Positions 21,006-43,024 of a DNA stretch of 64,000 bases are shown here, piece after piece. The DNA lies in the IMG/VR virus record IMGVR_UViG_3300020336_000481, positions 64,001 through 128,000 of that record; one strand, 5' to 3'. The notes under the pieces were generated by a model. It saw only the letters and a list, made by a program, of their open reading frames with translations. It had not been told where the DNA came from and did not search any database. The position numbers were made by a program, and so were the translations under genes. The stretch's first letter is position 1, and every line of letters starts with the position of its first letter. The DNA is from a virus (taxonomy: Duplodnaviria > Caudoviricetes).

Positions 21006-21026
21006 AAATAAACGGAGAAAAAAGAA

Positions 21027-21347
21027 ATGGCAAATGGAGTATTAGGAACAGCAGACCTAACAGCTACAACACTTACAACAGTGTATACAGTACCAGCAAA
21101 TACTTTTGCAGTAGTAAGTGTAAATGTTTGTAACCGTAGTTCGGCAGATGTAACAGTAAGAATTGCAACATCAGCAACAGCTACACCCACAAACGCTGAA
21201 TATATAGAATACGATGTGACCTTAGTAGGTAACGGTGCAGTTGAAAGAACTGGCGTTGTGTTACAGACAGGACAAAACGTTGTTGTATACGGATCAACCG
21301 GAGATATTTCAGCACAAGTTTTTGGCTTAGAAACATCAACAGTTTAA
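21027..21347 (+). CDS. Small virion/tail-fibre accessory protein
   Basis: 106 aa, TTVYTVPA..VNVCN motif typical of small phage fibre-associated proteins; SD GGAG. Confidence 0.7.
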   Translation: MANGVLGTADLTATTLTTVYTVPANTFAVVSVNVCNRSSADVTVRIATSATATPTNAEYIEYDVTLVGNGAVERTGVVLQTGQNVVVYGSTGDISAQVFGLETSTV

Positions 21348-21357
21348 GGAAAATAAA

Positions 21358-22308: not shown

Positions 22309-22312
22309 TAAA

Positions 22313-23176
22313 ATGGCAACGCTTAAGAATACAGCCATAAGCGGATCATTAACACTCCCATCAGGCACTACCGCACAAAGACCTGTTAATCCACCAAACG
22401 GCGCATTACGTTTTAATACTACCCTTGGATATGCAGAAATATATTTACATGGATTTTGGGGAGACATAGTTTCAGGAACAGATCTTCCAGTAGGTAGAGA
22501 CTGTGTGTGTTGGTTAGATGCAAATGTACCTGAAAGTAATACAGGATCAGGAACAACTTGGTATGATTTATCAGGTAACAATCATCACGGAACATTAAAC
22601 TCTATTACAAGAACAACAAATGGCAGTTTAAGTACAAATAATCAAAATGTAATGCAGTGCAACGCTAGTAGTAGTAGCTACATTAATGTTGTACATGGCG
22701 GACTAGATTTGCGTACAGTTAATACAGGTTATACAGTTATGCATGTTACACGTTATAGCGGTGGATCTAGAGGAAGAACATGGAATGCAGCTTCAAACAA
22801 TTGGCTCTTAGGCCATTGGAGTTCAGGGGCTACAAATCACTACGCAGAAGGATGGGTGTATGGCTCCTCAGGTGGCGGCCAAGTTGTTAATGACGAAAAT
22901 TGGCGATGTTATGCGGCCACTGGTAAAATAGATAGAGATCATTATTCTTTTTGGATAGACGGACAAAGAGTAGCGTTTGAAGATACAGGCGGATCAAATG
23001 GTCCTAACAGTTTTAGATTTGGCACTTATACTAATTTTGGTGAAGTTTCAAATGCTCAAACTGCATTGTTTATGGCTTGGAACAGAGCACTATCAAGTGA
23101 CGAAGTAAAACAAACACAAAATGCAATTCAAACTAGATTTGGACTTACACACAATCAGGTTTACTCTCAAGGATAA
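22313..23176 (+). CDS. Receptor-binding/fibre protein with LamG/concanavalin-A-like lectin domain
   Basis: WLDA...GSGTTWYDLSGNNHHGTL and WNRALSSDEV...RFG motifs; N-terminal LPSGTTAQRP anchor. Confidence 0.75.
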   Translation: MATLKNTAISGSLTLPSGTTAQRPVNPPNGALRFNTTLGYAEIYLHGFWGDIVSGTDLPVGRDCVCWLDANVPESNTGSGTTWYDLSGNNHHGTLNSITRTTNGSLSTNNQNVMQCNASSSSYINVVHGGLDLRTVNTGYTVMHVTRYSGGSRGRTWNAASNNWLLGHWSSGATNHYAEGWVYGSSGGGQVVNDENWRCYAATGKIDRDHYSFWIDGQRVAFEDTGGSNGPNSFRFGTYTNFGEVSNAQTALFMAWNRALSSDEVKQTQNAIQTRFGLTHNQVYSQG

Positions 23177-23179
23177 ATA
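23172..23179 (+). promoter_or_regulatory. Late promoter GATAAATA
   Basis: Overlaps the stop of the previous gene, upstream of ATG 23203. Confidence 0.6.
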
Positions 23180-23202
23180 TGGTAGTTAGGGAAACAACAT
23201 AA

Positions 23203-25107
23203 ATGGCAAGACTTAATAGCACAACAATTAATGATACAGGTTACCTATCTATCCCTGTAGGAACAGAAGCACAACGAATAGCAACAGTTTCAGGCACTAC
23301 TGTATTTTTTACAAGTGCAGGTAATACTTCTTGGACTGTTCCTGCTAACGTTTACAACGTAGAAGTTTTAGTTGTAGGCGGTGGTGGAGGTGGTGGTTCA
23401 GACATGGGTGGCGGTGGAGGCGGCGGTGGAGTCGTTTATGACGGTACCTATGGCGTTACTCCTGGAGCCTCAATAAGTATTACAGTTGCTAGTGGCGGAT
23501 CAGGTGGTCCAGCAGGAGCTAACCAATCACGTGGTAGTAACGGTGGAAACTCAGTTTTTGGAAATATCACAGCATATGGCGGTGGTGGAGGTGCTAGTAG
23601 ACATTCATCAAACGGAGCACCGGCAAGTGACGGCGCAAGTGGTGGAGGCGGATCAGGCGGTAGAGGTAGCGGTACAACAAGTTACGGCGGTACTCCAGGT
23701 AAAGCAATTTATGACCAAGGTTATGAAGGTTCTCCATCAGGAACTACTTGGTATCCAGGCGGTGGCGGCGGTGCCGGCGGCGTAGGAAGACATTCACCAG
23801 GTGATGGCGGTCAAGGTGTTGTAAATAATATTACAGGATCAGACATATTCTGGGGTGGCGGTGGAGGCGGCTCTGGATATAGTGCTAGAGGCGGCAACGG
23901 CGGTATTGGTGGAGGCGGCGGTGGCGCCGTTCTCACTACATATGGTGGTATTGGTTACAATAATGGAGCCGGAGGTGGTGGCGGTGGTATAAACACTTGG
24001 GCACAAACTCCAGGCGGTGCCGGAGGTGCAAACACTGGTGGCGGTGGAGGTGGTGGAGCACACTACAACTCCAACAACGCTGGTGGTACTGGCGGATCAG
24101 GTATTGTTGTTGTAAAATATAACACAACTTCACAAGATGCTAATCCAGTTACTGGCGGAATACGTATTAATAGCGATAATCAAGAAGTTGAAGTTCTTTC
24201 AGGTACAGGAGATTGGCAAACACTTACAACTCCTTATAAAGCAAGACAAGTTATTACAACATCTTATATGATGGGCGGATATAAAAGTTCAGCTGCATGG
24301 AACAATGTTAATAGGACATCTCATGCAACAGACACTACACAAAATTTAGGTGACGGATCTTTAGAACGTTCATTTAATTATCAATCTGGTGCAACTGGCA
24401 AAGATATTGGTTACGTATTTGGAGCAGGTAATGGTCATGCTATACCTAGTAACTATATTATAGGTTATAACATGCGTACAGAATCTCAATATACAGGTAT
24501 GCAATCAAGAACATTATCAGGTAATAGTTATAATTCAGGAACTATACAAAAAGAATTTTATATGGCTTGGCACTCCGGCGGACAAAGTAGTAATACTGTA
24601 CACAAATATAATTTAATGAATGAAGTTATGGTTACTGAAACTGCTGGATTTTACACAGGCAACACATGGGGAATGTATTGGGAAAATGAAGGATCACTAT
24701 ATTGGGAAAATGATTCACGTTTAATGAATTTTTCAACAGGTGCATGGACATCATGGAGCGGTACACAACCTAGTAATCATCACCAACAAAAATCTTTAAT
24801 GGGGAAATTAAACTTTTGTTGGGCAGGTAATCAAGGTTCTTATAACGGTGGTAATAGCTTCCGTAGAACAAGTTTTGTTACAAGGCAAACTTCTGGTACA
24901 TATAGCAAGCCTCGAGCAAACTGTGGAGAAGAAAATTTTGCATGTGGTCAAGATTGGGGTTACATGATAGGTAATTATGATGGTGCTCAAAACAATGGAT
25001 CATTTAAATGGTATTACTATACGGAAACAGGTGTTAACGGAGGCACAACTATGGAGCCAAAAGGTAAGGCAGGAGCAAGTTCAGGCTTCTGTACATGGAG
25101 AGATTAA
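23203..25107 (+). CDS. Glycine-rich tail fibre/receptor-binding protein with C-terminal propeller-like domain
   Basis: VLVVGGGGGGG...GGSGIVVVKY glycine-rich domain; C-terminal domain paralogous to 25108..26133; ends WRD. Confidence 0.75.
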   Translation: MARLNSTTINDTGYLSIPVGTEAQRIATVSGTTVFFTSAGNTSWTVPANVYNVEVLVVGGGGGGGSDMGGGGGGGGVVYDGTYGVTPGASISITVASGGSGGPAGANQSRGSNGGNSVFGNITAYGGGGGASRHSSNGAPASDGASGGGGSGGRGSGTTSYGGTPGKAIYDQGYEGSPSGTTWYPGGGGGAGGVGRHSPGDGGQGVVNNITGSDIFWGGGGGGSGYSARGGNGGIGGGGGGAVLTTYGGIGYNNGAGGGGGGINTWAQTPGGAGGANTGGGGGGGAHYNSNNAGGTGGSGIVVVKYNTTSQDANPVTGGIRINSDNQEVEVLSGTGDWQTLTTPYKARQVITTSYMMGGYKSSAAWNNVNRTSHATDTTQNLGDGSLERSFNYQSGATGKDIGYVFGAGNGHAIPSNYIIGYNMRTESQYTGMQSRTLSGNSYNSGTIQKEFYMAWHSGGQSSNTVHKYNLMNEVMVTETAGFYTGNTWGMYWENEGSLYWENDSRLMNFSTGAWTSWSGTQPSNHHQQKSLMGKLNFCWAGNQGSYNGGNSFRRTSFVTRQTSGTYSKPRANCGEENFACGQDWGYMIGNYDGAQNNGSFKWYYYTETGVNGGTTMEPKGKAGASSGFCTWRD

Positions 25108-26133
25108 ATGGCTAATTTAAAAAATACCAATATTAATGATACAGGACATTTAAATTTACCAGCTGGCAATGTTACAGGTAACGGCGTAATTAGATATAGT
25201 GCAACAGAAGGTAAGTTACAAGTTTTTAATACTCAAACTGCAGGCGGAACTTGGGGTGATGCAACTCAACCATATTTAACAAGACAAATTATTACCACAG
25301 GTTATATTCACGGAGGGTATGCTTCGTCAGTTGTTTGGTCAAGAACAAACAAAAGTGAATTTGCTACAGACACAACAATAGATTTAGGTAATACACAGGA
25401 AGGTGCTCATAACTATAAAGCAAGTATGTGGGATAACACTACAAACTATACGTTTGGAGGACTTGCTAACGCTCACTGTGCTTCTAACAACACAGTAACA
25501 GCATATAATATGCGAACTGAAATAAGTTATACATCTGGATACACTAGATCAATGCCTTGGAGTACTAACAATCCTGCATGTTTCCAACATGAACACTATA
25601 GAGGATGGTTTACAGGCGGAGGAAGTGCTGCAACATATGAAATGGATTTTTCTACAGCAACATTATCTAATTTAGGTGTAAATTCAGGTACAAGTGGAGG
25701 TAGTTGGGGTATATCACACGAAAAATATAGCATCTATATGCCTGCTAACCAAGGGTTTATGCATTCAACAAAAAATTATTATTCAAGATCAGGTAGCAAT
25801 CCACAAGGTGATAAACATCAACACTGCGGACAATTTAAACACGCTTACCACATTGGAGGCCGCGAAAGTAATCCAAGTACTAACTGGCGTGAAACCAATA
25901 TGCTTACTGATGTAACAGCAGATACTATTGGAGCAAAACCAGCATACAGCGGTGAAGAAAATTCAATAGTTGGACAAGATTGGTTTTACGGAGTTGGATG
26001 GTATCAAGGATCACACGTTAATACTGCTTTCAAATTTGTATATGCTACTAGACAATCAACTAGTGGATATTCAAGTTTAGCTGCTAAAGGAGTAAACGGG
26101 CAAAGTTCAGCAACGATGTCTTGGAGAGACTAG
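25108..26133 (+). CDS. Receptor-binding-like protein, paralog of the C-terminal half of 23203..25107
   Basis: Shares INDTG.L.LP.G N-terminus, PY..RQ.ITT.Y..GGY, GEEN...GQDW and terminal WRD. Confidence 0.7.
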   Translation: MANLKNTNINDTGHLNLPAGNVTGNGVIRYSATEGKLQVFNTQTAGGTWGDATQPYLTRQIITTGYIHGGYASSVVWSRTNKSEFATDTTIDLGNTQEGAHNYKASMWDNTTNYTFGGLANAHCASNNTVTAYNMRTEISYTSGYTRSMPWSTNNPACFQHEHYRGWFTGGGSAATYEMDFSTATLSNLGVNSGTSGGSWGISHEKYSIYMPANQGFMHSTKNYYSRSGSNPQGDKHQHCGQFKHAYHIGGRESNPSTNWRETNMLTDVTADTIGAKPAYSGEENSIVGQDWFYGVGWYQGSHVNTAFKFVYATRQSTSGYSSLAAKGVNGQSSATMSWRD

Positions 26134-26137
26134 GTAT

Positions 26138-26145
26138 GGTAAATA
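26138..26145 (+). promoter_or_regulatory. Late promoter variant GGTAAATA
   Basis: TAAATA core upstream of SD AGGAG and ATG 26177. Confidence 0.55.
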
Positions 26146-26176
26146 TTTGCACGTTAAAAACTATAGGAGTTAACAC

Positions 26177-27052
26177 ATGACCAATGACAGACTAGTACAA
26201 TATCATTCAGAAAAATTCAACAGTCAAATAAATTCTGATGTAAGTATGCTAAATGACCAAGATAAAGATGTTGTTAGCAGATCAATTAATAAAGAATGGA
26301 CAAATCCTAAATTTAAATTAAAATGGTTTGTAGGTAATGCACAAATTACTCCGTATGCAAAATTTAGACAGTGGTTATTAGAAATTAAATCTAAAGAAGA
26401 GTCAATTGAAAATATGGAATATGAGATTGCTAAACATAATGTTGAAATTGAAAGATTTAAACGTATTGAAGAAGAGTCGCATGATGAATTAGATAAAAAG
26501 ATGGCTGGCATTGAAAAATGGAACAGTGAAAGACTTTTTTATACATCTAGAAGAAGATTACAAGATTGGTACTTAGAGCGTCAACAACTAATTGATCTTA
26601 TCAACGAATTTATGGAGTCAGAAGAAGGTACAGTTCCAGACGGTTCAGGCAGAACTTGGTGGGATATAATTGACACCGAAGAAGAAGATATATGGGAAAA
26701 AGAATATTGGACAAATAGGCTAGGAAAACAAGCAGCAACTGATATGATTTTTTACGGTAGAATTAACAGTGGTAACATGGATGCTATTTTACAATTACCA
26801 CCAGAACAACAAGCAGAAACATTATCACTAGCAGTTAACTTTAGTACTAAGTTACAAAGTTATCAAAATACGTTAGAAAATAAAGCACAAGAAGCAATGA
26901 AGATCGGCATAAATACAGATGATAAAGAATTATTATCACCAAAAGAAATGGCAGAGCAAATCGCATCACAGCCTGACAGAAAAACTGCTCAAAAAGAACT
27001 TGGTAATGATAAAAAACAAGGAGATTTATTAGATGAAGTATATGATATATGA
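26177..27052 (+). CDS. Hypothetical coiled-coil protein
   Basis: 291 aa, charged helical sequence; SD AGGAG. Confidence 0.75.
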   Translation: MTNDRLVQYHSEKFNSQINSDVSMLNDQDKDVVSRSINKEWTNPKFKLKWFVGNAQITPYAKFRQWLLEIKSKEESIENMEYEIAKHNVEIERFKRIEEESHDELDKKMAGIEKWNSERLFYTSRRRLQDWYLERQQLIDLINEFMESEEGTVPDGSGRTWWDIIDTEEEDIWEKEYWTNRLGKQAATDMIFYGRINSGNMDAILQLPPEQQAETLSLAVNFSTKLQSYQNTLENKAQEAMKIGINTDDKELLSPKEMAEQIASQPDRKTAQKELGNDKKQGDLLDEVYDI

Positions 27053-27578
27053 GACCATTGGTAGCGATGACGTTAGAAATGATCCATCAAAAATTAAAAT
27101 CATAGATTATTTCTGGCTTTACACCATCTCCGAAGTATCTGATGATTTCCCACATGAATGGTTAAAAGGTGAAGAAATAACTAGGCAAGTTGCTCATTCT
27201 TACTATTTTCCTGGAGCAGTAGAGAACGAAATTAGTATTATGCGTAGTACTACTAACCCAGAAGACATGATGGAACCTACAAGTTTAGGTGATAATGACT
27301 ACGAAAAAGTAAATTATGCACTTACTGTAGACGATAGATTAAATGCTGTTAATCTTATGAAAGCAACAATGCGTTTACATGCAACACATTACTGTAAAAA
27401 TGAAGCAGAACGTAATAGATTAATTGCAGCTCTAAATACATTATCACAGTTATCTGAAACACAGATGTTTATGGCAACATATTTTGATTGGGACTGTGCA
27501 TATACGTACAATAAGACTAAAACTAAAGAATTTGATTTTAGTGTTACTGAGCCCTGGGCAGCTACTCCAATAGAATAA
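27033..27578 (+). CDS. Hypothetical protein
   Basis: 181 aa, overlaps the upstream gene, SD AGGAG. Confidence 0.7.
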   Translation: MKYMIYETIGSDDVRNDPSKIKIIDYFWLYTISEVSDDFPHEWLKGEEITRQVAHSYYFPGAVENEISIMRSTTNPEDMMEPTSLGDNDYEKVNYALTVDDRLNAVNLMKATMRLHATHYCKNEAERNRLIAALNTLSQLSETQMFMATYFDWDCAYTYNKTKTKEFDFSVTEPWAATPIE

Positions 27579-27585
27579 AAATCAC

Positions 27586-27614
27586 TTGCATTGATATATT
27601 ACCTGTGCTATAAT
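27586..27614 (+). promoter_or_regulatory. Sigma70-type promoter TTGCAT-N17-TATAAT with extended -10 TG
   Basis: Direct reading; precedes SD GGAG and TTG start 27637; an AATAAGTA late-like motif overlaps the -10. Confidence 0.65.
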
Positions 27615-27636
27615 AAGTATAGTATAGGAGATACAT

Positions 27637-29310
27637 TTGCCAAAAAATATTTTTAGTGTTCCGTTAAATCCAAAATTAACGCCTGAGCAATTTATTACAT
27701 TTTATAACTTTTTATTAGAACATAAAGAGTATATTAGAGATGTATATTTTACCTGCAGGATTGCGCCTTTTATGAAAGATGCAATGGGTGATATTTTTGT
27801 TAATGATGATGATTACGATCATGCTATTGAACAAGCATTAGTAATTCAAAACAATCTTGGTATTCCGATAAGTGCAACATTTAATAATATACAGGTCCCT
27901 CCTAGCCAAAAAAACTTAGATATTTTTATTAAGAATTTTAAACCTCTTTATGATAGAGGTATTAAGGTTGCTACAATTCCACACACGCATTGGATGGCAA
28001 CTGGTCAAATTAAACGTGCTTTTCCAGAACTATATGTAAAAAATACAATTCTTAGAGATGTTAGAGTTGCTGCAGAAATTGTAAATTTAGCAAAATACGG
28101 ATTTGATTACATTAACTTAGACAGAGACTTAATGCGTGACAGGGATACATTGTTAAGGTTAGTTGAAGCTAAAAAATGGATTAAAGACAATTTAAATAAA
28201 GAAGTACATTATAGCTTACTAGCCAATGAAGGATGCAAGGGCAACTGTCCTATGATGGTTGAACACTTTGAATATAATAATACAAGAGAAGGCAATAGTC
28301 CTCAATATTTTAATGAACCTATTAGTAGGGTAAGTTGTCCTAAGTGGGATGTAGACGATCCTAGTGTACACTTAAAAACAGCAAATATTCCGCCTTGGAG
28401 AGAAGATTGGCAAGAGCTGTTAGATGACTTAGGAGTTGATGTATTTAAAATGCATGGTCGAGAAGCTGTTAGTAGATTATTTGAAACATTAGATATTATT
28501 AAGCGTTGGGCAAATAACGAAGATATATTATTTGATAATTTTGAAGAATACTTAAATGATAATAATTTAAAAGATAAACCTATTAATGCTTGGCGTAAAA
28601 AAATTAAAAACTGTAAGTTTGATTGTTGGGAATGTCATTTTTGTGATGACATTTATAAAATTAAATCAAAGAATGATCATACAGACTTAGTTAAGCATGT
28701 AGCACAAGCTATACTTGATAGCGGAGTTCCTAGTGTAAATATTAAAATACCAGGCTTGACATCTAGAAGAGTACAGACATTATTAAATTTAATTGCTAAA
28801 AAAAGTAATCTGTATATGGAACTTGGAAGTGGACTAGGTGCAACTTTGTGTAGTGTTCTTTACAAAAATAATATAAATGCTATTGCTATTGACAACTGGG
28901 AACAAAATATACAACCTGCTAGGAAAGACTTACCTAATTTACCAGATAATCAATTTGATATGTTTTATAAAAATGTTCAAGATAGTAAAGGTCCTAATGA
29001 TGTACAAATAATAAATGAAGATTTATTTTATGTTGATCCTTCTAAGTATAGTAATGTAGACTTCTGGTTTTATGACGGACCACATGATCAAGAAAGCACT
29101 GCAAAAGCTATTATAAGATATGCACCATGTTTAGCAGATCAATCTGTATTAATATTTGACGATGCTAATTGGCAAGGAGTAGTTGACGGTGCTAGAGAAG
29201 GTGTTAATCAAGCAGGTTTAGTGGTTAATTATGAAAAAATTGTGTTAGGAGACGAAGAAGACCCTAACGGATGGTGGAACGGTTTGTATATAATGGTGGT
29301 AGAAAAATGA
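27637..29310 (+). CDS. Peptidase-U32-family (putative Fe-S hydroxylase) domain fused to a class I SAM methyltransferase (Methyltransf_24-like)
   Basis: LLANEGCKGNCP...H...SC, DVFKMHGRE (U32 xxKIEGR-like), CKFDCWECHFC; C-terminal MELGSGLG, FYDGPH, LIFDDANW. Confidence 0.7.
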   Translation: MPKNIFSVPLNPKLTPEQFITFYNFLLEHKEYIRDVYFTCRIAPFMKDAMGDIFVNDDDYDHAIEQALVIQNNLGIPISATFNNIQVPPSQKNLDIFIKNFKPLYDRGIKVATIPHTHWMATGQIKRAFPELYVKNTILRDVRVAAEIVNLAKYGFDYINLDRDLMRDRDTLLRLVEAKKWIKDNLNKEVHYSLLANEGCKGNCPMMVEHFEYNNTREGNSPQYFNEPISRVSCPKWDVDDPSVHLKTANIPPWREDWQELLDDLGVDVFKMHGREAVSRLFETLDIIKRWANNEDILFDNFEEYLNDNNLKDKPINAWRKKIKNCKFDCWECHFCDDIYKIKSKNDHTDLVKHVAQAILDSGVPSVNIKIPGLTSRRVQTLLNLIAKKSNLYMELGSGLGATLCSVLYKNNINAIAIDNWEQNIQPARKDLPNLPDNQFDMFYKNVQDSKGPNDVQIINEDLFYVDPSKYSNVDFWFYDGPHDQESTAKAIIRYAPCLADQSVLIFDDANWQGVVDGAREGVNQAGLVVNYEKIVLGDEEDPNGWWNGLYIMVVEK

Positions 29311-30830
29311 ATAAACAAATAAAAGAATTAATTATTTTTGGTGGCGGAACCAGTGGTTGGTTGACAGCGTCATACTTGGTAAAAAATTTACAGTCTCCTT
29401 GTAAAATTACACTTATAGAAGACGTGTCAGCAGGACCTATTGGTGTAGGAGAAGGCACACAGCCTCTTACTGCAAAGTTTTTATTTGAATGTGGCATTGA
29501 TCCTAAAAGGTGGATGAAGCCAAGTAATGCAGCATTCAAATACGGAGTTGAGCTAACGGGCTGGAACGATATACCTTATTTTGTAGACAATGATACTCCT
29601 ACTAACTATATGGCTTCACAAATTGATTTTATTAATAGATATTTTCATAACCAACCTTACGAAGAATATGCAAAATGGCATCCTGCATATAGATTAGCTA
29701 AGAAAAATGTAAGTCCTAAATTAGAAACAAACTTAGATGTTAGTTTTGGAATAGGACCAGAGGGGTTTGGTGCTGTACATTTTAGTGCATATGATATTAT
29801 AGATACTCTTAAAAAAATAGTAGGTCCAAAAATTATTCATGTAGATGCTAAAATAGTACAAGCAAAAACTAACTCCGAAGGCATAAGTGATCTTATAGAC
29901 GATAAGGGTAACACATATACTGCAGATTTATTTTTAGATTGTAGTGGATTTAAAAGTGCATTGTTAGGCAAAGGAGTAAAAAGCGAATTTGTATCATATA
30001 AAGAACAAGGTTGGTTATTAAATGATAGTGCAGTAGCAATGCCAACACAATATACTAATCCTCAAGAAGAGTGCCATCCGTATACAAAAGCTACTACAAT
30101 GACAAGTGGTTGGCGTTGGACTATCCCAACATATAAAAGAATTGGAAACGGATACGTTTATAGTAGTGATTTCTTAAGTGAAGAAGAAGCTGAAAAAGAA
30201 TTAAGAGAATCAGTAAATGATTTTGAAACCCCTGTAAAACATTTAAAAATGAGATGTGGATCGCATAAAGAAGTTGCAAAGAAAAATGTAGTGGGCATTG
30301 GATTAGCGGCTGGATTTATTGAACCACTAGAAGCAACCGGCATAACATTTACAACATCTTTAGCTAAAAGTGTTACAGACTTATTAAATCTAAATGGAAT
30401 GAATTGGGACGATAAAGTACGTGATTTTATTAATCAAGGCTTTTACGAAATGTCAACAGAAATACTTGCATTTGTATGGAGTCATTATCACTTTAGCAAA
30501 AAAGATGATACTCCTTATTGGAAAGCAATAAGAGAACAAAAACTTACAGATTTGCCTTCCGACGCTCAACATATTATTTCACAGTATTGGCCAAAGCCTA
30601 AACCGTTTTTATTCTTTAGTCAGCAATCTATGTTTACTAGTATTCAATGGTGGTCAATGATTCATGCAGGAGGAGGTTATAATACTTCTATTAGTTTAAG
30701 TGAAAAAGAAAAAGATTATTTTGAGTATTTTATAAAAAATACTAACAACAGAATAGAAATGGCTGAGGAGTTATTTCCCAATCATTATGAATTTTTAAAG
30801 GAGTGGTATGACGAATGGAAAATAAGTTAG
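29307..30830 (+). CDS. Flavin-dependent (tryptophan-halogenase family) halogenase
   Basis: GGGTSGW FAD motif, GVGEGT, catalytic-Lys region AFKYG, GWRWTIP (WxWxIP), GFIEPLEATG; ATGA overlap with the upstream gene places the start at 29307. Confidence 0.9.
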   Translation: MNKQIKELIIFGGGTSGWLTASYLVKNLQSPCKITLIEDVSAGPIGVGEGTQPLTAKFLFECGIDPKRWMKPSNAAFKYGVELTGWNDIPYFVDNDTPTNYMASQIDFINRYFHNQPYEEYAKWHPAYRLAKKNVSPKLETNLDVSFGIGPEGFGAVHFSAYDIIDTLKKIVGPKIIHVDAKIVQAKTNSEGISDLIDDKGNTYTADLFLDCSGFKSALLGKGVKSEFVSYKEQGWLLNDSAVAMPTQYTNPQEECHPYTKATTMTSGWRWTIPTYKRIGNGYVYSSDFLSEEEAEKELRESVNDFETPVKHLKMRCGSHKEVAKKNVVGIGLAAGFIEPLEATGITFTTSLAKSVTDLLNLNGMNWDDKVRDFINQGFYEMSTEILAFVWSHYHFSKKDDTPYWKAIREQKLTDLPSDAQHIISQYWPKPKPFLFFSQQSMFTSIQWWSMIHAGGGYNTSISLSEKEKDYFEYFIKNTNNRIEMAEELFPNHYEFLKEWYDEWKIS

Positions 30831-31396
30831 CACTAGTTCATGCAGATTTATGGTCAAAAAGTAATGTTGGTACTATAGATCAACGACAAGATTTACTAAA
30901 ACAAATTCTTGCAGCAAAACAAGAAGGCAGTGTAGAAATTCAAGAAAGCAATGCAGGATGCTGGAGGTCAAGAGTAGAATATGAAAATTTAGATTGGCTG
31001 TTTACAGATCTTAAAACAATAGTTCAAAATGCTAGTGAATATTACTTTGATATTGACGAAGTATTTAGAAGTAGAGTGGTTGACAAACAAGTTAAATTTA
31101 GTTATTGGACAAACGTAAACGAATATAATGCATCTAATGTATTACATACACATAACAAAGACACGTTTACAGCTACATATTATCTACAAGGTAGTAGCAC
31201 AGGAACACTTAATTTTGTAAATCCTGCTAACATGACTTTAGAATGTTCAAACATATCACCAATGACGAGATCTGTTGCTGTTCAACCAGAAGATGGAGAT
31301 TTATTTGTGTGGCCAGGCTGGGTGCCACATGAAGTTGTACCTAATCCTAGTCAAAGGCAACGAATTAATATTGCATTTAGTATACAAGTATCATGA
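30815..31396 (+). CDS. Putative 2OG-Fe(II) oxygenase (TIGR02466-like)
   Basis: WTNVN...HTH...YYL...P..GDLFVWPGWVPHEV...RINIAF. Confidence 0.8.
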   Translation: MENKLALVHADLWSKSNVGTIDQRQDLLKQILAAKQEGSVEIQESNAGCWRSRVEYENLDWLFTDLKTIVQNASEYYFDIDEVFRSRVVDKQVKFSYWTNVNEYNASNVLHTHNKDTFTATYYLQGSSTGTLNFVNPANMTLECSNISPMTRSVAVQPEDGDLFVWPGWVPHEVVPNPSQRQRINIAFSIQVS

Positions 31397-32139
31397 TTTT
31401 TAAAAAGAAAAATAAAATAGAGTTTTTTTCAAAAGTTCCTGGAGTAGCGGAAACATTTCCAATTATTCCTACATCTAAGTTTAAACCTAAATGGGTAGAA
31501 GCATGTAAAAACGACTTTATAAGAAATAAAGGTTCTAAACAACCTAGTCACTTACAACTATGCCCTGGTATATTTGAAGTGTACAAATACGGGTACGTAG
31601 TTCCAATGTGGCATGATGTTACAATAAAAACTTTTAGAGATAGGGAAGATTTTGAAGCTGGAACTCCTAGTAAGCATTTAAATGAAATGTATAACGGAGA
31701 AGTAGTAGGTACACATCCTTATGAAATAACAAAATGGCTACCAAAAAGACCTTACAGTAAACATGCATTTGTTAAATTAAACACACCTTGGCATGTTATT
31801 GCTCCGCCTGGTGTAAAGTTTTTAGTTATACCTATCCCTTATGCTGACAATTATGACTATGAAAGTGCTATCGGAATCTTAGACCCTTCAGTAAGTACAG
31901 AAGTAAATATCCAAGCATACTGGAATGTAAATGAAGGAGAAAGAAAAATATTTGCAGGAACACCTATGATGCAACTTGTTCCTATAAGTGAAAAGTCGTT
32001 TGATCTAGATGTAAGAGATGCGACAGAGCATGATAAAATATGGTTAGACAAACGTACATACATATACATCTTTGGATACAAAGTTGATAAAGCAAAAATG
32101 AAAGAAGCATACTTAAAACATTTTGGAGGTAAAAAATGA
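31393..32139 (+). CDS. Hypothetical protein, DUF6065-like/dUTPase-like fold; paralog of 32551..33309
   Basis: CPGI, KLNTPW, PPG, GTPMMQLVP motifs. Confidence 0.6.
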   Translation: MIFKKKNKIEFFSKVPGVAETFPIIPTSKFKPKWVEACKNDFIRNKGSKQPSHLQLCPGIFEVYKYGYVVPMWHDVTIKTFRDREDFEAGTPSKHLNEMYNGEVVGTHPYEITKWLPKRPYSKHAFVKLNTPWHVIAPPGVKFLVIPIPYADNYDYESAIGILDPSVSTEVNIQAYWNVNEGERKIFAGTPMMQLVPISEKSFDLDVRDATEHDKIWLDKRTYIYIFGYKVDKAKMKEAYLKHFGGKK

Positions 32140-32558
32140 TACACGAATTAGTTACTAATGAATTAGTAATCTATACACAAGAACTAAGAGACGCAAAAGA
32201 TGATGTGTACAAACAACGTAAAGTACAGAAAGATAGGAAGAAAGCGGCAATGTGGTTACGCTTGTGGTTAGATCATCAAGAAATCTATTTAACATGGGAA
32301 GATGACAACGGAAATGATGTAAGTTCTATTGCAAGTACTACATGTGAATGGGAAGAACCCCCTATGTTTCCCACAACACCAATGTCAATAGAAATTATTC
32401 ATGGTGAAGAAGTAGAAGAAGATCAGTATATAAGATTTTATCAAAAACCTTCTGTTACACCTACAGCAGTACATATTGATAAGATTAAAAATTGGGTAAC
32501 AACTAATAACGATATTAAAAAACTGTCAGAAATATTTGGTAAAAATTTATATGCTTAA
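32136..32558 (+). CDS. Hypothetical protein
   Basis: SD GGAGG, ATGA overlap. Confidence 0.7.
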   Translation: MIHELVTNELVIYTQELRDAKDDVYKQRKVQKDRKKAAMWLRLWLDHQEIYLTWEDDNGNDVSSIASTTCEWEEPPMFPTTPMSIEIIHGEEVEEDQYIRFYQKPSVTPTAVHIDKIKNWVTTNNDIKKLSEIFGKNLYA

Positions 32559-33309
32559 TTTTTTTAGTAAAAAACCTAAATTAGAATTTGTTTCTTTAAT
32601 GCCAGAAGTTGCAGAATTAATGCCTATCATCCCTGCACGAGAACAAAATTTTAAATGGACAAAGTCTGCCTTAGATCATTACAAAAAAATTAAAAAAGAA
32701 ACTCCAGAGCAAGATTCATTTCATCACATAGCAAAGTGCCCAGGTATTTTAAATGTGATGAAGCAAGGATGGATACATAGAAGCTATCAAGATATATTTG
32801 TAAAAATAGAAAATGATCAGTTTGGTTGGAAAACACCTATAGACCAAAGTAAAGCAGATGTAGGTCATAAGTGGACATGGCCTTATCTTGGGTTACATGA
32901 TAAAGATATTATGGGTCCGTATTGTTTAGAAAGAGGAGCATATCATTCAATAGTAAAAATACAAACACCGTGGCTTGTTTATGTTCCTAAAGGATATCAA
33001 TTACTAATTACGCCTTTGCCGTATCCTGATATACATAAGTTTGAATCAACTACAGGATTTTTAAATGGTGGAGAAGGACCACAGTTTTTAAATGTACAAC
33101 TGTTTTGGTATGCACATAACGAAGAAGTTTTTATACCAAAAGGTACTCCGTTATGTCAATACCATTTAATTAAAAAAGAAGAAATAGAAGTTGAACAAAG
33201 AGCATACACAGAAAACGATTTAAAAAATTTACGTAAAAGAAATAATGTTGTAACTAGTAAGTTCAATAAAACATACAGTGATTTAAGGAAGATAACATGG
33301 AAAACTTAA
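32551..33309 (+). CDS. Hypothetical protein, DUF6065-like; paralog of 31393..32139
   Basis: KCPGI, KIQTPW, PKG, GTPLCQY; ATG at 32551 aligns with the paralog's N-terminus. Confidence 0.6.
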   Translation: MLNFFSKKPKLEFVSLMPEVAELMPIIPAREQNFKWTKSALDHYKKIKKETPEQDSFHHIAKCPGILNVMKQGWIHRSYQDIFVKIENDQFGWKTPIDQSKADVGHKWTWPYLGLHDKDIMGPYCLERGAYHSIVKIQTPWLVYVPKGYQLLITPLPYPDIHKFESTTGFLNGGEGPQFLNVQLFWYAHNEEVFIPKGTPLCQYHLIKKEEIEVEQRAYTENDLKNLRKRNNVVTSKFNKTYSDLRKITWKT

Positions 33310-33890
33310 CTTTAGAAGACTTTATCTTAGTAAAAAAGAATGCAATTAGTCCAGCAGATTGCAGAAAAGTTACTAATTATTTTGACGAAATGCAAAAATT
33401 AAACTTGACGTTTGATAGGCATCAGTTGCGTGATAGTCCTGGACATGAAAAGAAAGACGAAACATGTTTTCCAATGGAGCCTGATACATTAGCATTGCCA
33501 AAAACACATCCTGTATTACATACTATTGTAACTTCTGTAAAAGAAGCAATGAGTGACTATATTGTTGAATATAGTATTTTACAAGATACAAGTAGTCACG
33601 GAATTAGAAGTTGTAGAATACAAAAAACAGCAAAAGGCGGCGGATATCATAGATGGCATTTTGAAAGCGAAGGATTACCTTCATGTAATAGATTTTTAGT
33701 TTTTTCAATATACTTAAATAATGTTATGCAAGGTGGCGAAACAGAATTTTTATATCAGTCTAAAAGAATTGAGCCAGAAGAAGGCACACTACTAATATGG
33801 CCTGCTGGTTTTACACACGTACACCGAGGTAATCCTCCACTTAGTGGTAATAAATATATAGCAACAGGTTGGATTGAATACTTTGAATAA
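33297..33890 (+). CDS. 2OG-Fe(II) oxygenase (prolyl-4-hydroxylase-like)
   Basis: GGGYHRWHFE...YLN...GGETEF...WPAGFTHVHRG...KYIATGW. Confidence 0.85.
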   Translation: MENLTLEDFILVKKNAISPADCRKVTNYFDEMQKLNLTFDRHQLRDSPGHEKKDETCFPMEPDTLALPKTHPVLHTIVTSVKEAMSDYIVEYSILQDTSSHGIRSCRIQKTAKGGGYHRWHFESEGLPSCNRFLVFSIYLNNVMQGGETEFLYQSKRIEPEEGTLLIWPAGFTHVHRGNPPLSGNKYIATGWIEYFE

Positions 33891-34155
33891 AAAAGAATTA
33901 TATAATATACTAGGTGTAGATCCTAGTTGTTCTAAAAAAGAACTTAAAACAGCTTTTCGCAAATTAGCTGCACAACACCATCCTGACAAAGGTGGCGATG
34001 TAGAAATATTTAAAAAAATTAAATCAGCATTTGAGTTATTATCATTAGATAAAGAGTCTAACTTACCAACTAGACAAAGTAAACCTCAAGATGATTGGTT
34101 TAACTCAATGTTTGGTGGAAAAACAGGACCTTATAAACGCAATGGCATTTCATAA
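33874..34155 (+). CDS. Small DnaJ (J-domain) protein
   Basis: LYNILGV...ELKTAFRKLAAQHHPDKGG...IKSAFELL. Confidence 0.85.
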   Translation: MNTLNKKELYNILGVDPSCSKKELKTAFRKLAAQHHPDKGGDVEIFKKIKSAFELLSLDKESNLPTRQSKPQDDWFNSMFGGKTGPYKRNGIS

Positions 34156-34354
34156 AGCAGAACTTATAATTAATAGCCATAAAGATACGTATTTTAGTAA
34201 TAAAGCACACGAACATATTTTACAGTTTGAAAAACGATATTATTACATAAATTTTAAATTATCACATGATAAAACTTTTGTTACATTTGATAATGACGAA
34301 TCCTTAGAACAGTTTAAAAAGCACTGGAAACACTACCTTCGCGTTGTATACTAA
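34142..34354 (+). CDS. Hypothetical small protein
   Basis: ORF overlapping the end of the J-domain gene; start uncertain. Confidence 0.45.
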   Translation: MAFHKAELIINSHKDTYFSNKAHEHILQFEKRYYYINFKLSHDKTFVTFDNDESLEQFKKHWKHYLRVVY

Positions 34355-34359
34355 TTAAC

Positions 34360-34367
34360 GATAAATA
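34360..34367 (+). promoter_or_regulatory. Late promoter GATAAATA
   Basis: Upstream of SD AAGGA and ATG 34389. Confidence 0.7.
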
Positions 34368-34388: not shown

Positions 34389-35906
34389 ATGGCAAGTGAT
34401 CCAATTGTAAATAGAATTCGTATTATTCCTCGCCCCGACGGTTTTCTTGATCGTAATGTAGGCTCGAGTGGAGAAGTATTCTATGACAAACAAGCAAATA
34501 CTTTAAGGCTATATGATGGCAAGTTAGCTGGCGGCTATACATTATTAACATCAGGAAATTTATCACAACAACTTAGTGCATCTGGAGTTGCTGTTTTAGA
34601 AAAAACTGTTACTGTAGGAGTTGACACAGTAGCAAGTCAAGGATCCGGTGTATTTTATATTGACGGTGTAGAAAAACCTCAACTTAATTTAGTTAGAGGA
34701 TACACGTATGTCTTTGATCAAAGCGATGCAACTAACGAAAACTATGCTAGTTTATACCACCCATTAATGTTTAGTACAGTAGAGAACGGTGAACTTGCAG
34801 GTGGTGGACATTATAATACAGGTGTTGTTTATTTGTTAGATGATGATCCTGTTACAATGGCAAAATATGTGTCAGGATTTCAAGCAGCTACTACAAGAAA
34901 AGTTTTACTTACAGTAAAAACTAGCACACCTAATTCACTTTTTTATTGGTGTCATTTTCATTTAAATCAAGGAAACAGTATTACAGTTGCAGACCCAGGA
35001 ACAGGCTCTGGCAGCGGTGGAGGCGGTGGATCAGCTAGTGTAGAAGTTTCTGACACAGTACCAGCTACTCCTACATCAGGTAATATATGGTTTAATAGTT
35101 CAAGTGGTAGATTGTATGTATACGCAGGCGACACAGATAGTAATCAATGGGTGCAACCAACTGTGCCGGTTTTTCCAACATTTAAAACAGTAGCAATTAA
35201 AGACAGCGATAGTGCTACAATAGTAGCATCATCAGTAGCTGATACACTTACCTTTGAACAAGGTACTGGAATAGATTTACAAATTAATAGTGCTACAAAT
35301 ACTCTTACAATTACTTCTGCTTCAAGCAGCAGTGTAGGTAATTTTAGTTTTGCATCTAGTATTATTGATACAGATGATAGTAGTAGTATTATAATTACAC
35401 CCAGTGTTACAGTAAGTAGCGACTTAACTGTAGAAAATGATTTAGTTGTAAACAACACATTGTCTGCAAAACAGTTTATTAATACAAGTATAGGAGCACC
35501 AATATTAGATAGTGCATCAACACTTTCATTTGTTGCCCCAGATGGTGTATTAATAAGAGGTGAATTAAAATTAGAAAACAATAACATCACAGGCGTAGGT
35601 ACAATTAACAATGAACCTACACCTTTTATCATGGGAGTGCTAGATGGTAGCACAAACGCATGGTCAGGAGGAGGAGTTTCAGGAATAGTTGATAATGCCG
35701 TAGGCGATCATACACTAACATTTACTTCAAATCTTGGTACCACTGTAGACGATTTCCAAGTACTTGCAACAGTGCAAGATAAAACAGCTGGCCACAGTTG
35801 TGTAATATCAAAACCAGCTGTAAATCAAATTAGAGTTAATGTAGATAATTTATCAGGAACAGGAGTAGATTCCAAGGTATTTCTTGTAATTTATAAAACA
35901 GCATAA
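34389..35906 (+). CDS. Tail fibre-like protein with cupredoxin-like domain
   Basis: N-terminal GEVFYD...LRLYDG...GG fibre module; HPLMFS...YWCHFHLNQG; P..GNIWFNS..GRLYVY fibre motif. Confidence 0.7.
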   Translation: MASDPIVNRIRIIPRPDGFLDRNVGSSGEVFYDKQANTLRLYDGKLAGGYTLLTSGNLSQQLSASGVAVLEKTVTVGVDTVASQGSGVFYIDGVEKPQLNLVRGYTYVFDQSDATNENYASLYHPLMFSTVENGELAGGGHYNTGVVYLLDDDPVTMAKYVSGFQAATTRKVLLTVKTSTPNSLFYWCHFHLNQGNSITVADPGTGSGSGGGGGSASVEVSDTVPATPTSGNIWFNSSSGRLYVYAGDTDSNQWVQPTVPVFPTFKTVAIKDSDSATIVASSVADTLTFEQGTGIDLQINSATNTLTITSASSSSVGNFSFASSIIDTDDSSSIIITPSVTVSSDLTVENDLVVNNTLSAKQFINTSIGAPILDSASTLSFVAPDGVLIRGELKLENNNITGVGTINNEPTPFIMGVLDGSTNAWSGGGVSGIVDNAVGDHTLTFTSNLGTTVDDFQVLATVQDKTAGHSCVISKPAVNQIRVNVDNLSGTGVDSKVFLVIYKTA

Positions 35907-37507
35907 TGAGTGAAAAAGAATATATTGTAGTAGTAAAAAAAGGTGTAGACTTAGAAGTATTTGATGCTGATTTAGCATCAGATACTGGTGACAGTACTAT
36001 TCCTGAAAGAGCTGTTACAGTAGCAAATCCTAGACTAGGATCAAAGAGAATGACACACTGGATGCTTACAGACGATGAAGCACAAGCCCTAAAAAACGAT
36101 CCAAGAGTACTTGATGTAGAAATCCCTGTTGAGCAACGCGACGATATAGTTATACACCCACGTGCAATACAAACCGGAACGTTTAACAAAACAAATTCTT
36201 CAACAGGCATTAATTGGGGTCTAAACAGATGCGTAAGTGCTTCTAATAATTGGCCTTCAACTATCACAGAAAAAGTAGCGGCTGAGTATCCTTATGCATT
36301 AGACGGTACAGGTGTAGATGTTGTTATACAAGATAGCGGCATTGAACCTAATCATCCTGAATGGCAAGACACTAATAGCAATTCAAGATTAAAACAAATT
36401 GATTGGTTTACAGAAAGTGGTATCTCAGGAACACAATCTGCAAGTTTTTATAGTGATACAGACGGACACGGTACTCATTGTGCAGGAATTAGTGCAGGCA
36501 AAACTTATGGCTGGGCAAAGAATGCACATATATATGCACAAAAGGTCTCAGGATTAGAAGGTCCAGCAGATAGCAGTGGTATCAGTACGGCAAACTGCTT
36601 TGATACAATACGATTATGGCACTCTGCAAAAACTAACGGCAGACCTACAGTTGTAAACATGAGTTGGGGATATTCTACAACATTAATTGGAACCCCTGAT
36701 CCTACTAGCGGTACGCATTATAATGACAACACCGGTGTTATGGATACATGGACTTATGGTGATACAGGTTATACTACAGATAACAATATTTGGCAAAATA
36801 CAGGATTTGTGCCTAATCAAAGAAGCGGTAATAGAACAATACCTGTAAGACTATCAAGTGTAGATGCAGAAATAGATGATATGATTGATGCTGGAATACA
36901 TGTTATAATTGCAGCTGGAAATGATTACACAGTTAGTGCTAAAGATACTGCTACTGCCGCAGATCATTTTAATGACAGCATACAAATAGGCGGAGTAACT
37001 TATTATTATCATAGAGGCTCTAGTCCAAGATCTACAACTAATGAAGGTTTAGTAGTGGGAAGTATAGATGCTGATCTACAAGGTGAGTCAGATAAAATTG
37101 CACCATATTCTACAAGAGGCCCAGCAGTTGATATTCTTGCTCCTGGTTCTAACATAGTTTCAGCTTGTAGTACTGCAAGTATATACACAACGGCAGCTTA
37201 CCCTCCAGATACAACTTACAAAATTACAAATATTGATGGTACGAGTTTTGCAGCTCCACAAGTTGCAGGATTAGCAGCTCTTTATTTACAAGTACTTCCA
37301 AACTTAACTACAAGCGAATTAAAAACAAAAATACTTAATGATTCATTAAGTGTTGTATATGATAACCCTAATGCATATCAAGGTCCGCCTTTAAATTATT
37401 TAAATTATGGTAACGGACTATACGGAACTCCAAATAAAATGATGTTTAGTAAATATGGCCGTAATTCATCTTTTGAAATAAAAGGTAGTCTTAATGTTAA
37501 CATGTAA
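35906..37507 (+). CDS. Subtilisin-like S8 serine protease
   Basis: Catalytic motifs IQDSG, HGTHCAG and GTSFAAPQVAG; oxyanion AAGN; N-terminal I9-like prodomain. Confidence 0.9.
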   Translation: MSEKEYIVVVKKGVDLEVFDADLASDTGDSTIPERAVTVANPRLGSKRMTHWMLTDDEAQALKNDPRVLDVEIPVEQRDDIVIHPRAIQTGTFNKTNSSTGINWGLNRCVSASNNWPSTITEKVAAEYPYALDGTGVDVVIQDSGIEPNHPEWQDTNSNSRLKQIDWFTESGISGTQSASFYSDTDGHGTHCAGISAGKTYGWAKNAHIYAQKVSGLEGPADSSGISTANCFDTIRLWHSAKTNGRPTVVNMSWGYSTTLIGTPDPTSGTHYNDNTGVMDTWTYGDTGYTTDNNIWQNTGFVPNQRSGNRTIPVRLSSVDAEIDDMIDAGIHVIIAAGNDYTVSAKDTATAADHFNDSIQIGGVTYYYHRGSSPRSTTNEGLVVGSIDADLQGESDKIAPYSTRGPAVDILAPGSNIVSACSTASIYTTAAYPPDTTYKITNIDGTSFAAPQVAGLAALYLQVLPNLTTSELKTKILNDSLSVVYDNPNAYQGPPLNYLNYGNGLYGTPNKMMFSKYGRNSSFEIKGSLNVNM

Positions 37508-37513
37508 TAAATA
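37506..37513 (+). promoter_or_regulatory. Late promoter variant AATAAATA
   Basis: Upstream of SD GAGG and ATG 37531. Confidence 0.5.
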
Positions 37514-37530
37514 TACAAAAGAGGTAATCA

Positions 37531-43003: not shown

Positions 43004-43024
43004 TATTTATCGTAACGATAAATA
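43004..43024. promoter_or_regulatory. Palindromic back-to-back late promoters TATTTATCGT-A-ACGATAAATA
   Basis: Perfect 10-bp inverted repeat, with one GATAAATA facing each divergent neck gene. Confidence 0.75.

Follow-up and report, generated by a model that had tools for sequence, protein, structure and literature searches.

A halogenase, oxygenase and methyltransferase cassette in the tail-fibre block of an uncultured marine T4-like phage and its possible role in tailoring glycine-rich fibre-tip proteins

What does a marine phage modify with a flavin-dependent halogenase, two 2-oxoglutarate (2OG)-Fe(II) oxygenases and an O-methyltransferase that are encoded among its tail-fibre genes? The question is raised by positions 26177–34155 of a 64-kb stretch of DNA (the window, meaning the whole sequence analysed here), which corresponds to bases 64001–128000 of the 147-kb IMG/VR virus contig IMGVR_UViG_3300020336_000481. 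The contig derives from an uncultured marine T4-like phage and is a fragment (completeness 42%, CheckV); the window has a G+C content of ~0.34 and carries almost all of its genes on the + strand. Nearest protein matches were found in T4-like cyanomyoviruses (Kyanoviridae), at 43–46% identity for a fusion protein of 557 amino acids (aa) and 26–33% for the halogenase, and a megablast search of the cassette against deposited phages returned zero near-identical DNA. Arguing from synteny alone, we propose that the cassette may be a late-expressed module inside the tail-fibre block that tailors the co-encoded glycine-rich fibre-tip proteins (genes starting at 23203 and 25108), a reading to which we give somewhat less than an even chance.

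A preliminary description of this locus listed ten open reading frames (ORFs) within 26177–34155, all of which are present at their coordinates on the + strand and overlap or abut one another, with overlaps of 4–40 nt. ATGA start/stop overlaps occur at three junctions (29307–29310, 31393–31396 and 32136–32139), and these and other overlaps extend through 27033–34155. Translational coupling of the ATGA type joins the gene for the 557-aa fusion with the halogenase gene, and an oxygenase gene with a gene for a dUTPase-fold protein (248 aa). Every oxidative enzyme of the 147-kb contig falls in this single cassette. Fibre genes had been described on both flanks, and PHROG and Pfam matches bear this out.

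We assessed the linkage of the enzymes with fibre genes, a check that the preliminary description had called for, in 91 viral loci with 105 halogenase ORFs forming 58 clusters at 70% identity. The sampled loci are those most like the window halogenase and share ancestry, so the counts reflect conservation and not independent events. The outcome was positive: in 32 of 41 informative clusters, at least one of the eight genes upstream of the halogenase was fibre-like, compared with a baseline of ~0.30 taken from the window's own contig, fibre-like being judged by size or Gly content only. In 38 of 45 clusters a 2OG oxygenase gene lay no more than three genes away from the halogenase; a dUTPase-fold protein was encoded within three genes downstream in 21 of 53, and a TIM-barrel protein with conserved cysteines (TIM-barrel/Cys protein) within two genes upstream in 21 of 55. 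Among 14 close IMG/VR relatives, the order fibre-tip, 291-aa, 181-aa and 557-aa proteins, halogenase, oxygenase, dUTPase-fold protein and fibre was kept down to ~50% halogenase identity, with additional oxygenase genes inserted into the cassette in some of them. At 45% halogenase identity, the halogenase gene is followed by one small gene, a J-domain gene and then a dUTPase-fold gene on the opposite strand. Relatives differ widely in the genes that they carry downstream of the halogenase.

These comparisons revealed a recurrent unit that is new here, consisting of one or more glycine-rich fibre-tip proteins, a small protein (of the 181-aa family or a '170-aa' family), an optional TIM-barrel/seven-Cys protein and the halogenase. 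Its order is kept down to 27–30% identity, including around a member 27% identical to the N-terminal domain of the window's fusion protein, where the upstream gene carries Gly_rich_2. In Syn9, gp36, gp38 and gp39 contain 22–35% Gly, gp40 belongs to the 170-aa family and gp41 and gp42 are halogenases, and P-RSM6 shows the same order.

The candidate substrates are encoded directly ahead of the cassette. The gene at 23203–25107 (+) specifies a glycine-rich fibre-tip protein of 634 aa (24% Gly, ending CTWRD) that matches Gly_rich_2 (PF21722, E 7.4e-16) and, C-terminally, phrog_1417 (E 8.7e-47). X-Pro-Gly occurs in this protein at several sites, and a PKG motif close to its C-terminal end is conserved. 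The gene is followed at 25108–26133 (+) by a paralogous fibre-tip protein of 341 aa, also of phrog_1417 and ending MSWRD, and this pair of phrog_1417 genes is retained in related loci. Tip proteins of this family, in the window (23203–26133) and among homologs, share the motif (E/Q/A)-(P/A)-K-G-x2-G-x-S-S-(G/A) a few residues from the end, with the P-HM2 homolog as the sole exception; the motif holds an X-Lys-Gly site and occurs with or without a halogenase. The preliminary description had further called for a check of co-occurrence with WRD-ending receptor-binding proteins (RBPs). We rejected a WRD or Trp-bearing fibre tail as a halogenase marker, as halogenase-bearing relatives end GFRE or FSTGI in our small sample; S-CAM4 and P-HM2, both without a halogenase, likewise have no tail Trp in that sample. 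The label 'Trp/His/Tyr-rich' for the three upstream proteins holds in a modest form, as they carry 2.5–3.5% W against 0.6–1.6% in other fibre proteins.

We found that the cassette is made of two separable modules, one with the 291-aa and 557-aa proteins and one with the halogenase, the oxygenase and the dUTPase-fold protein. The genomes of P-HM2, S-CAM4 and P-SSM4 contain a block of T4-GC351 (glycine-rich, fibre-type), GC352, GC353 (the 291-aa family) and GC354 (the 557-aa homolog) and no halogenase, while Syn9, P-RSM6, P-SSM2, Sf-CH11 and S-MbCM6 have halogenases and no TIM-barrel/Cys protein. Because cultured phages can carry the 557-aa fusion without the halogenase set and the reverse, the two do not form one coordinated pathway. 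The earlier proposal of a single pathway acting on adjacent virion proteins or RBPs is thus retained for its link to fibre genes and dropped for its unity. In the window lineage, both modules are joined and translationally coupled. The supplement of Sullivan et al. (2010) gives T4-GC351–354 only as hypothetical proteins.

The 291-aa family precedes 557-aa homologs, directly or across one small gene, in P-HM2, S-CAM4, P-SSM4 and the Ralstonia jumbo phage RP31 (277 kb). In RP31 (5389–7041 of the locus), the 291-aa family member is joined by a TIM-barrel/seven-Cys protein (42% identity) without the methyltransferase and then by a second 346-aa gene. Since the pair is kept there, it suggests a two-protein unit that works outside cyanophages. 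RP31 ORF139 resembled a fibre-tip protein by eye and was discarded as a homolog when jackhmmer did not confirm it.

Within the first module, the gene at 26177–27052 (+) encodes an acidic protein of 291 aa, mostly helical by eye and the partner of the 557-aa protein, that belongs to phrog_1409 (= T4-GC353; E 1.4e-38). The next gene (27033–27578, +) encodes a protein of 181 aa that fills the small-protein slot in related loci; it had no match in Pfam, PHROG or NCBIfam, and its 25 homologs in related loci keep the same position wherever the flank is present. The 557-aa protein (27637–29310, +) is, judged by its model, Pfam and fold, a fusion of a TIM barrel, U32-like and probably binding an iron–sulphur (Fe-S) cluster, with a class I S-adenosylmethionine (SAM)-dependent O-methyltransferase. 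Its methyltransferase part, as described earlier, is secure: Methyltransf_24 matches residues 395–509 (31.9 bits, cut-off 26.3), the fold aligns with 5x7f at Z 16.5 (root-mean-square deviation (rmsd) 3.0 over 170 residues) and with TrmR at Z 15.2, and E395, G397 and G401 of the glycine-rich SAM loop are invariant.

The 'U32' label for the other part holds less well. PF01136 had no match in the N-terminal 388 residues at E 10, in a six-frame search of the contig or in 10 remote relatives, and profile searches of PDB sequences with family alignments returned no U32 match. The model has an N-terminal (beta/alpha) barrel with cysteines in low-confidence loops, and seven cysteines are invariant in the family (C200, C204, C234, C326, C330, C333 and C336; 30 members, 24–45% identity). 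Alignment of 30 family members with Escherichia coli UbiU, UbiV, TrhP and RlhA by hhalign gave a probability of 62.6% (E 7.3e-5), with 125 columns of the barrel core aligned, and language-model similarity (Atlas feature) was 0.90–0.92 to clusters with PF01136 on 20% of their members. As the Pfam profile fails and the barrel model with its seven invariant Cys, the hhalign result and the language-model likeness lend the assignment weak support, we call the domain U32-like and not an established member of U32. Structural searches with the full 557-residue model mainly returned matches to its methyltransferase domain and to generic TIM barrels (MetF, pyruvate kinase). By analogy, the fusion is predicted to hydroxylate and then O-methylate. 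Its relatives number at least 1968 in metagenomes, with homologs in 126 deposited phage records, and JGI labels homologs 'O-methyltransferase YrrM'.

The second module opens with the flavin-dependent halogenase (29307–30830, +), an assignment confirmed by Trp_halogenase (PF04820, 289.3 bits against a cut-off of 21, E 7e-86), phrog_2928 (E 4e-97) and intact motifs. The longest ORF begins at 29271, and the start is probably the ATG at 29307 because this overlaps the TGA stop of the 557-aa gene in the ATGA junction. Alignment to PrnA retains GxGxxG (GGGTSGW), the equivalents of catalytic Lys79 (AAFK) and Glu346 (EPLEATG), and WxWxIP (SGWRWTIP), and these catalytic motifs are invariant across 10 relatives. 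Towards the C-terminus, where a module for binding free tryptophan would be expected, the best alignments to the PrnA, RebH and Thal classes end near residue 427–431 of 519. No flavin reductase had been seen, consistent with the absence of PF01613 from the 147-kb contig, itself a fragment; a reductase of the host could fill this role. A complex prediction for the halogenase and the 248-aa dUTPase-fold protein, both entered as alignments, scored 0.00, which is uninformative either way.

Both 2OG-Fe(II) oxygenases named in the preliminary description exceed their Pfam cut-offs. The first, of 193 aa (30815–31396, +), is of the 2OG-FeII_Oxy_5 or TIGR02466 type (PF13759, 59.2 bits against a cut-off of 27; TIGR02466, 49.1, under its cut-off of 62.5) and is encoded behind the halogenase in most close relatives. 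Its conserved residues are H111-x-H113...H172 and R183. A His thus occupies the usual position of the iron-binding carboxylate (H111-x-H113) and is conserved among 37 sequences, and the site may be of a three-His type. The second, of 197 aa (33297–33890, +), is a prolyl-4-hydroxylase-type enzyme of the 2OG-FeII_Oxy_3 family (PF13640, E 2.3e-10, 41.7 bits against a cut-off of 27), with H121-F-E123 and H176 present (H121-x-E123...H176) and both His at least 90% conserved in 39 relatives. Enzymes of PF13640 are of the prolyl/lysyl-hydroxylase type, and most substrates known for this type are proteins. The same oxygenase also matches PHROGs named 'DNA endonuclease' (phrog_2297 and phrog_274), and in P-SSM4 (9695–10204 of the locus examined), Syn19 and Syn33 a gene annotated denV (T4-GC100) lies directly behind the 557-aa homolog. 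Because the window's prolyl-hydroxylase-type oxygenase matches those PHROGs, some 'denV' and 'DNA endonuclease' names may be wrong.

The cassette ends with a J-domain-only protein of 93 aa (33874–34155, +; PF00226, E 5.3e-15, 55.7 bits against a cut-off of 27.8), for which the HPD motif (HHPDKGG) supports the earlier call. An ORF of 87 aa with many His, Phe and Lys residues (34091–34354) shares 65 nt with the end of the J-domain gene but is read in another frame; no family matched it, and it is only putatively coding.

Two paralogs had been reported, and both indeed belong to phrog_7084. The 248-aa protein (31393–32139, +) was assigned from its model and from homology to Syn9 gp43 as a DUF6065-like protein of the dUTPase fold with a conserved Cys, and the 257-aa paralog (32536–33309, +; phrog_7084 E 1.5e-39) is 29% identical to it. 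The term 'DUF6065-like' fared unevenly, as neither paralog matched DUF6065 (PF19541) in Pfam even at E 10, while the 248-aa model resembled an Atlas cluster with PF19541 on 41% of its members (TM 0.73/0.86 over 202 residues). This model (pLDDT 91.7) has the dUTPase/dCTP deaminase fold (VIA Z 9.3, rmsd 2.6, 124 residues), with the top 22 rows all from that superfamily among only 37 chains at Z ≥2 and Foldseek TM values of ≤0.66 by target. Segments reading CPGIF-E/D, PKRPxS, GILD and PxxQL resemble by eye what we take to be dUTPase motifs I–IV, and no motif V-like Gly-rich C-terminus was seen by eye in the family alignment. Identity of the protein to dUTPases is 13–20%. In the second paralog (32536–33309), the near-invariant Asp of GILD is replaced (GFLN), and because this Asp is lost the protein may be non-catalytic. 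The 248-aa protein is 32% identical to gp43 of Syn9, which sits directly behind the Syn9 halogenases, and in 14 of the 17 deposited phage records with this family the gene is directly downstream of a halogenase. Between the paralogs, a 140-aa protein (32136–32558, +) had no match in Pfam, PHROG or NCBIfam, and its 12 homologs occupy the same position in related loci; with the 291-aa and 181-aa proteins it makes up the genes earlier described as unknown, and none of the three belongs to a named family.

Expression signals suggest that the cassette may be transcribed together with the fibre-tip genes. The canonical T4 late-promoter octamer TATAAATA occurs 0 times in the window, where 11.9 ± 3.7 copies are expected, and was rejected as the late promoter here; GATAAATA fits instead, with 12 copies compared to 5.9 expected. 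Its + strand sites lie at 2854, 13870, 20927, 23172, 34360, 43017, 48243, 48977, 51701, 52218 and 55263, of which 8 copies sit 6–27 nt ahead of structural-gene starts, and the − strand site is at 43004–43011. The phage appears to rely on a late motif that begins with G and to avoid the form beginning with T. Motif search placed late-promoter-like GATAAATA sites at 23172–23179 (+), 24 nt ahead of the 634-aa gene, and at 34360–34367 (+), 22 nt ahead of a 505-aa fibre gene, the latter marking the downstream end of the unit. Zero copies occur within the overlapping genes of 27637–33890, which the sites flank. Variants are GGTAAATA, ahead of the gene at 26177, and AATAAATA at 33849, ahead of the J-domain gene, and a TATAAT box lies ~20 nt ahead of the 557-aa gene. 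Between the sites at 23172 and 34360 there is a single, weak terminator-like site (25310), and terminator-like sites overall show no excess over shuffled sequences. From these motifs, the simplest reading is that the cassette is co-transcribed with the fibre-tip genes late in infection.

How would such a module act? Its first part would be the 291-aa and 181-aa proteins with the 557-aa fusion, in which the U32-like Fe-S TIM barrel would place a hydroxyl group on an sp2 carbon, to be methylated in turn by the fused O-methyltransferase. In the second part, the flavin halogenase would draw on FADH2 made by the host to halogenate an electron-rich aromatic ring, accompanied by the 2OG oxygenase and the dUTPase-fold accessory proteins. 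The prolyl-hydroxylase-type oxygenase and the J-domain co-chaperone would complete the cassette. In its specific form, which we hold as doubtful, the proposal holds that the adjoining enzymes halogenate, hydroxylate and methoxylate the ribosomally made glycine-rich fibre-tip proteins at aromatic, Pro or Lys residues.

Other targets have to be weighed, among them the small molecule and the nucleic acid that the preliminary description had named as alternatives. Within the infected cell, the enzymes could act on a small molecule, a free amino acid or a peptide, with the fibre neighbourhood merely tolerating cargo, a possibility that we consider unlikely. Characterised flavin halogenases of the PF04820 family use free or carrier-bound small substrates, and the cyanophage halogenase VirX1 is reported to iodinate diverse substrates, which are small molecules in vitro. 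Halogenases also lie within auxiliary-gene islands of S-MbCM6 and P-SSM2, and Iyer et al. (2010, PMC2938197) base their case for such targets on bacterial neighbourhoods in which Trp-type halogenases occur with JmjC/2OG dioxygenases, peptide synthetases and TonB receptors. However, general family scans of the cassette and its relatives returned neither a scaffold synthase nor a carrier protein or transporter, in agreement with the earlier observation that nonribosomal peptide and polyketide synthases and transporters are missing among the cassette genes. Marine picocyanobacteria are, to our knowledge, not producers of such compounds, and a small-molecule target leaves the deep order of glycine-rich protein, small protein, (TIM-barrel protein) and halogenase unexplained. 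Pyrimidine nucleotides or nucleic acid as the target appear distinctly unlikely. By analogy with the formation of 5-methoxyuridine (mo5U) in tRNA by TrhP and TrmR, the U32-like domain would hydroxylate C5 and the O-methyltransferase would give a 5-methoxy base; the dUTPase-fold proteins would bind nucleotide, and the halogenase and oxygenases would further modify phage DNA or tRNA/rRNA bases. The known U32 enzymes are TrhP (5-hydroxyuridine, ho5U, at tRNA position 34), RlhA (5-hydroxycytidine, ho5C, at rRNA position 2501) and UbiU/UbiV; yrrMNO joins two U32 genes with TrmR (YrrM), and trhO-trmR fusions exist (PMC5727448). The JGI name of the 557-aa homologs, the TrmR fold match (Z 15.2), and the fold and motif I–IV-like segments of the 248-aa protein agree with this. 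Yet U32 membership is not established, TrmR is not set apart from other catechol-type O-methyltransferases (top Z 16.5), and both oxygenases belong to families other than those that act on nucleic acids (AlkB, TET/JBP). No tRNA gene occurs in the window, and enzymes for DNA precursors or tRNA would be oddly placed among late fibre genes. We know of no phage with a halogenated base.

A common target may also be lacking altogether, the genes being independently acquired accessories in a recombination-tolerant structural spot, each with a host substrate of its own; consumption of 2-oxoglutarate, as has been proposed for cyanophage 2OG oxygenases, would be one example. The separable modules and the highly variable gene content downstream of the halogenase favour this, and cyanophage 2OG oxygenases have been read in terms of host 2OG/nitrogen signalling or DNA repair (Sullivan et al. 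2010). We regard it as very unlikely given the placement of the dUTPase-fold gene directly behind the halogenase in those 14 of 17 records, which is far beyond chance, the 2OG oxygenase near the halogenase in most clusters, the ATGA coupling of the 557-aa gene with the halogenase gene and of the oxygenase gene with the dUTPase-fold gene, and the confinement of all oxidative enzymes of the contig to one cassette. Several points weigh against the tailoring of fibre proteins as well. No modified residue has been observed on them, and synteny in a strongly collinear phage family, among loci that are not independent, may mark an insertion hot spot. Halogenases of the same family lie beside psbA (S-MbCM6), replication genes (S-B64) and nrd genes (P-SSM2), the 291-aa/TIM-barrel pair of RP31 has no detectable adjoining fibre-tip homolog, and the Trp-bearing C-terminal tail is not universal among halogenase-bearing relatives. 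The dUTPase-superfamily proteins point to nucleotides, known U32 enzymes target RNA bases or ubiquinone precursors and not proteins (PMC6599085, PMC5727448, PMC10990095), and the published reading of such clusters is secondary-metabolite synthesis (PMC2938197). Fibre tailoring nevertheless fits best, because of the deep order in which a glycine-rich protein precedes the enzymes, the chaperone-type neighbours and the oxygenase of protein-hydroxylase type; the J domain and these chaperone-type neighbours are consistent with a role in fibre maturation.

If the fibre-tip proteins are indeed the substrates, no virion protein before them would have been halogenated, VirX1-type viral halogenases would gain the natural substrates long sought for them, and the U32-like/O-methyltransferase fusion would be the first enzyme of its hydroxylase class with a protein target. 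Chemical tailoring of fibres would also mean that host range is determined at a further, new level in viruses that rank among the most abundant in the ocean. VirX1-like cyanophage halogenases serve as biocatalysts whose native substrate is still sought, and marine-phage 2OG oxygenases have so far been explained by guesses (nitrogen signalling, DNA repair, metabolites). The conserved order names a specific candidate protein for mass spectrometry in cultured phages, and the widespread 557-aa fusion, found in ~120 deposited cyanophage genomes and ~2000 metagenomic proteins and always annotated as hypothetical, is a candidate hydroxylase-methylase in its own right.

The surrounding tail-fibre block spans 2974–39372 and includes giant fibre proteins of 1410, 1975 and 2369 aa. 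Upstream of the candidate substrates, the gene at 21358–22308 (+) encodes a fibre-tip protein of 316 aa with many tail-fibre PHROG matches and a C-terminal Peptidase_S74 intramolecular chaperone domain (PF13884, E 2.9e-11), and that at 22313–23176 (+) a fibre-type protein of 287 aa (W 3.5%) with a conserved fibre N-terminus, to which its PHROG matches are limited. Downstream, 34389–39372 (+) holds fibre/baseplate-type genes for proteins of 505, 533 and 613 aa with PHROG tail matches, retained downstream in relatives. The 533-aa protein (35906–37507) contains a full-length subtilase S8 domain (PF00082, E 1.8e-35) between two fibre-type genes, a placement kept in relatives. Elsewhere on the contig, a 5051-aa ORF lies at 17902–33057, and from this and the 42% CheckV rating the phage may be much larger than typical cyanomyoviruses.

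Compared with known systems, the 557-aa fusion would, if its likeness to U32 is real, follow the logic of the U32 hydroxylases, which carry out prephenate-dependent hydroxylation of pyrimidine C5 in RNA or of the ubiquinone ring (PMC6599085, PMC5727448, PMC10990095). TrmR, a YrrM-class O-methyltransferase, methylates ho5U, and the Bacillus subtilis yrrMNO operon encodes both functions (PMC5727448; PMC10990095). Like TrhP/TrhP1-P2 with TrmR, RlhA and UbiU/UbiV, the fusion has a TIM barrel with conserved Cys after late strands, and it shares with TrhP and TrmR (yrrMNO) the pairing of a hydroxylase-type domain with a YrrM-class O-methyltransferase, which would couple sp2-carbon hydroxylation with subsequent O-methylation. 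It differs in having no Pfam U32 match, in a C-x3-C spacing where the U32 signature is presumably C-x6-C, in an additional C-x3-C-x2-C-x2-C cluster (C326–C336) and in combining both domains in one chain; U32 enzymes sit among translation or quinone genes, whereas the 557-aa gene sits among fibre genes.

The two genes at the end of the cassette also have counterparts. Phage J-domain proteins include Rki of the T4-like phage RB43, likewise a short HPD J-domain-only protein, although the window copy lies in a fibre and tailoring cassette. Chlorella viruses and mimivirus provide examples of hydroxylases acting on collagen-like proteins, and in bacterial operons prolyl/lysyl hydroxylases have been proposed to act on co-encoded collagen-like or tail-collar proteins (PMC2938197). 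The window likewise pairs a PF13640 oxygenase with glycine-rich structural proteins bearing X-Pro-Gly and X-Lys-Gly sites, but their glycine-rich domain is Gly_rich_2, with Gly runs, and not a collagen G-X-Y repeat, and hydroxylation is only a candidate reaction here.

VirX1 of cyanophage Syn10 (PDB 6qgm) shares the Pfam family and catalytic motifs of the window halogenase (phmmer E 1.2e-51) but is only ~30% identical to it, with PrnA closer in sequence (E 7e-65) and the C-terminal substrate module of the window enzyme unaligned past residue ~430. In Syn10, too, a dUTPase-fold homolog is present, beside the halogenase genes. The cassette as a whole is a small member of the already published Syn9-type dioxygenase/halogenase cluster, having a halogenase, unrelated dioxygenases and a dUTPase-fold Cys protein in a same-strand array behind fibre genes. 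The Syn9 cluster itself (gp40–gp54) contains ten dioxygenases and two Trp-type halogenases and has been read as secondary-metabolite synthesis (Iyer et al. 2010, PMC2938197), not virion modification. It is thus larger than the window cassette, with its one halogenase and two dioxygenases, and includes the JmjC/MINA-type gp49, whereas no cassette protein matched JmjC or cupin families in Pfam, PHROGs or NCBIfam. In turn, the window cassette has two dUTPase-fold paralogs and a J-domain gene, and its halogenase gene is ATGA-coupled to a TIM-barrel/Cys and O-methyltransferase fusion that Syn9 lacks. Both clusters occupy the same location, behind glycine-rich fibre genes.

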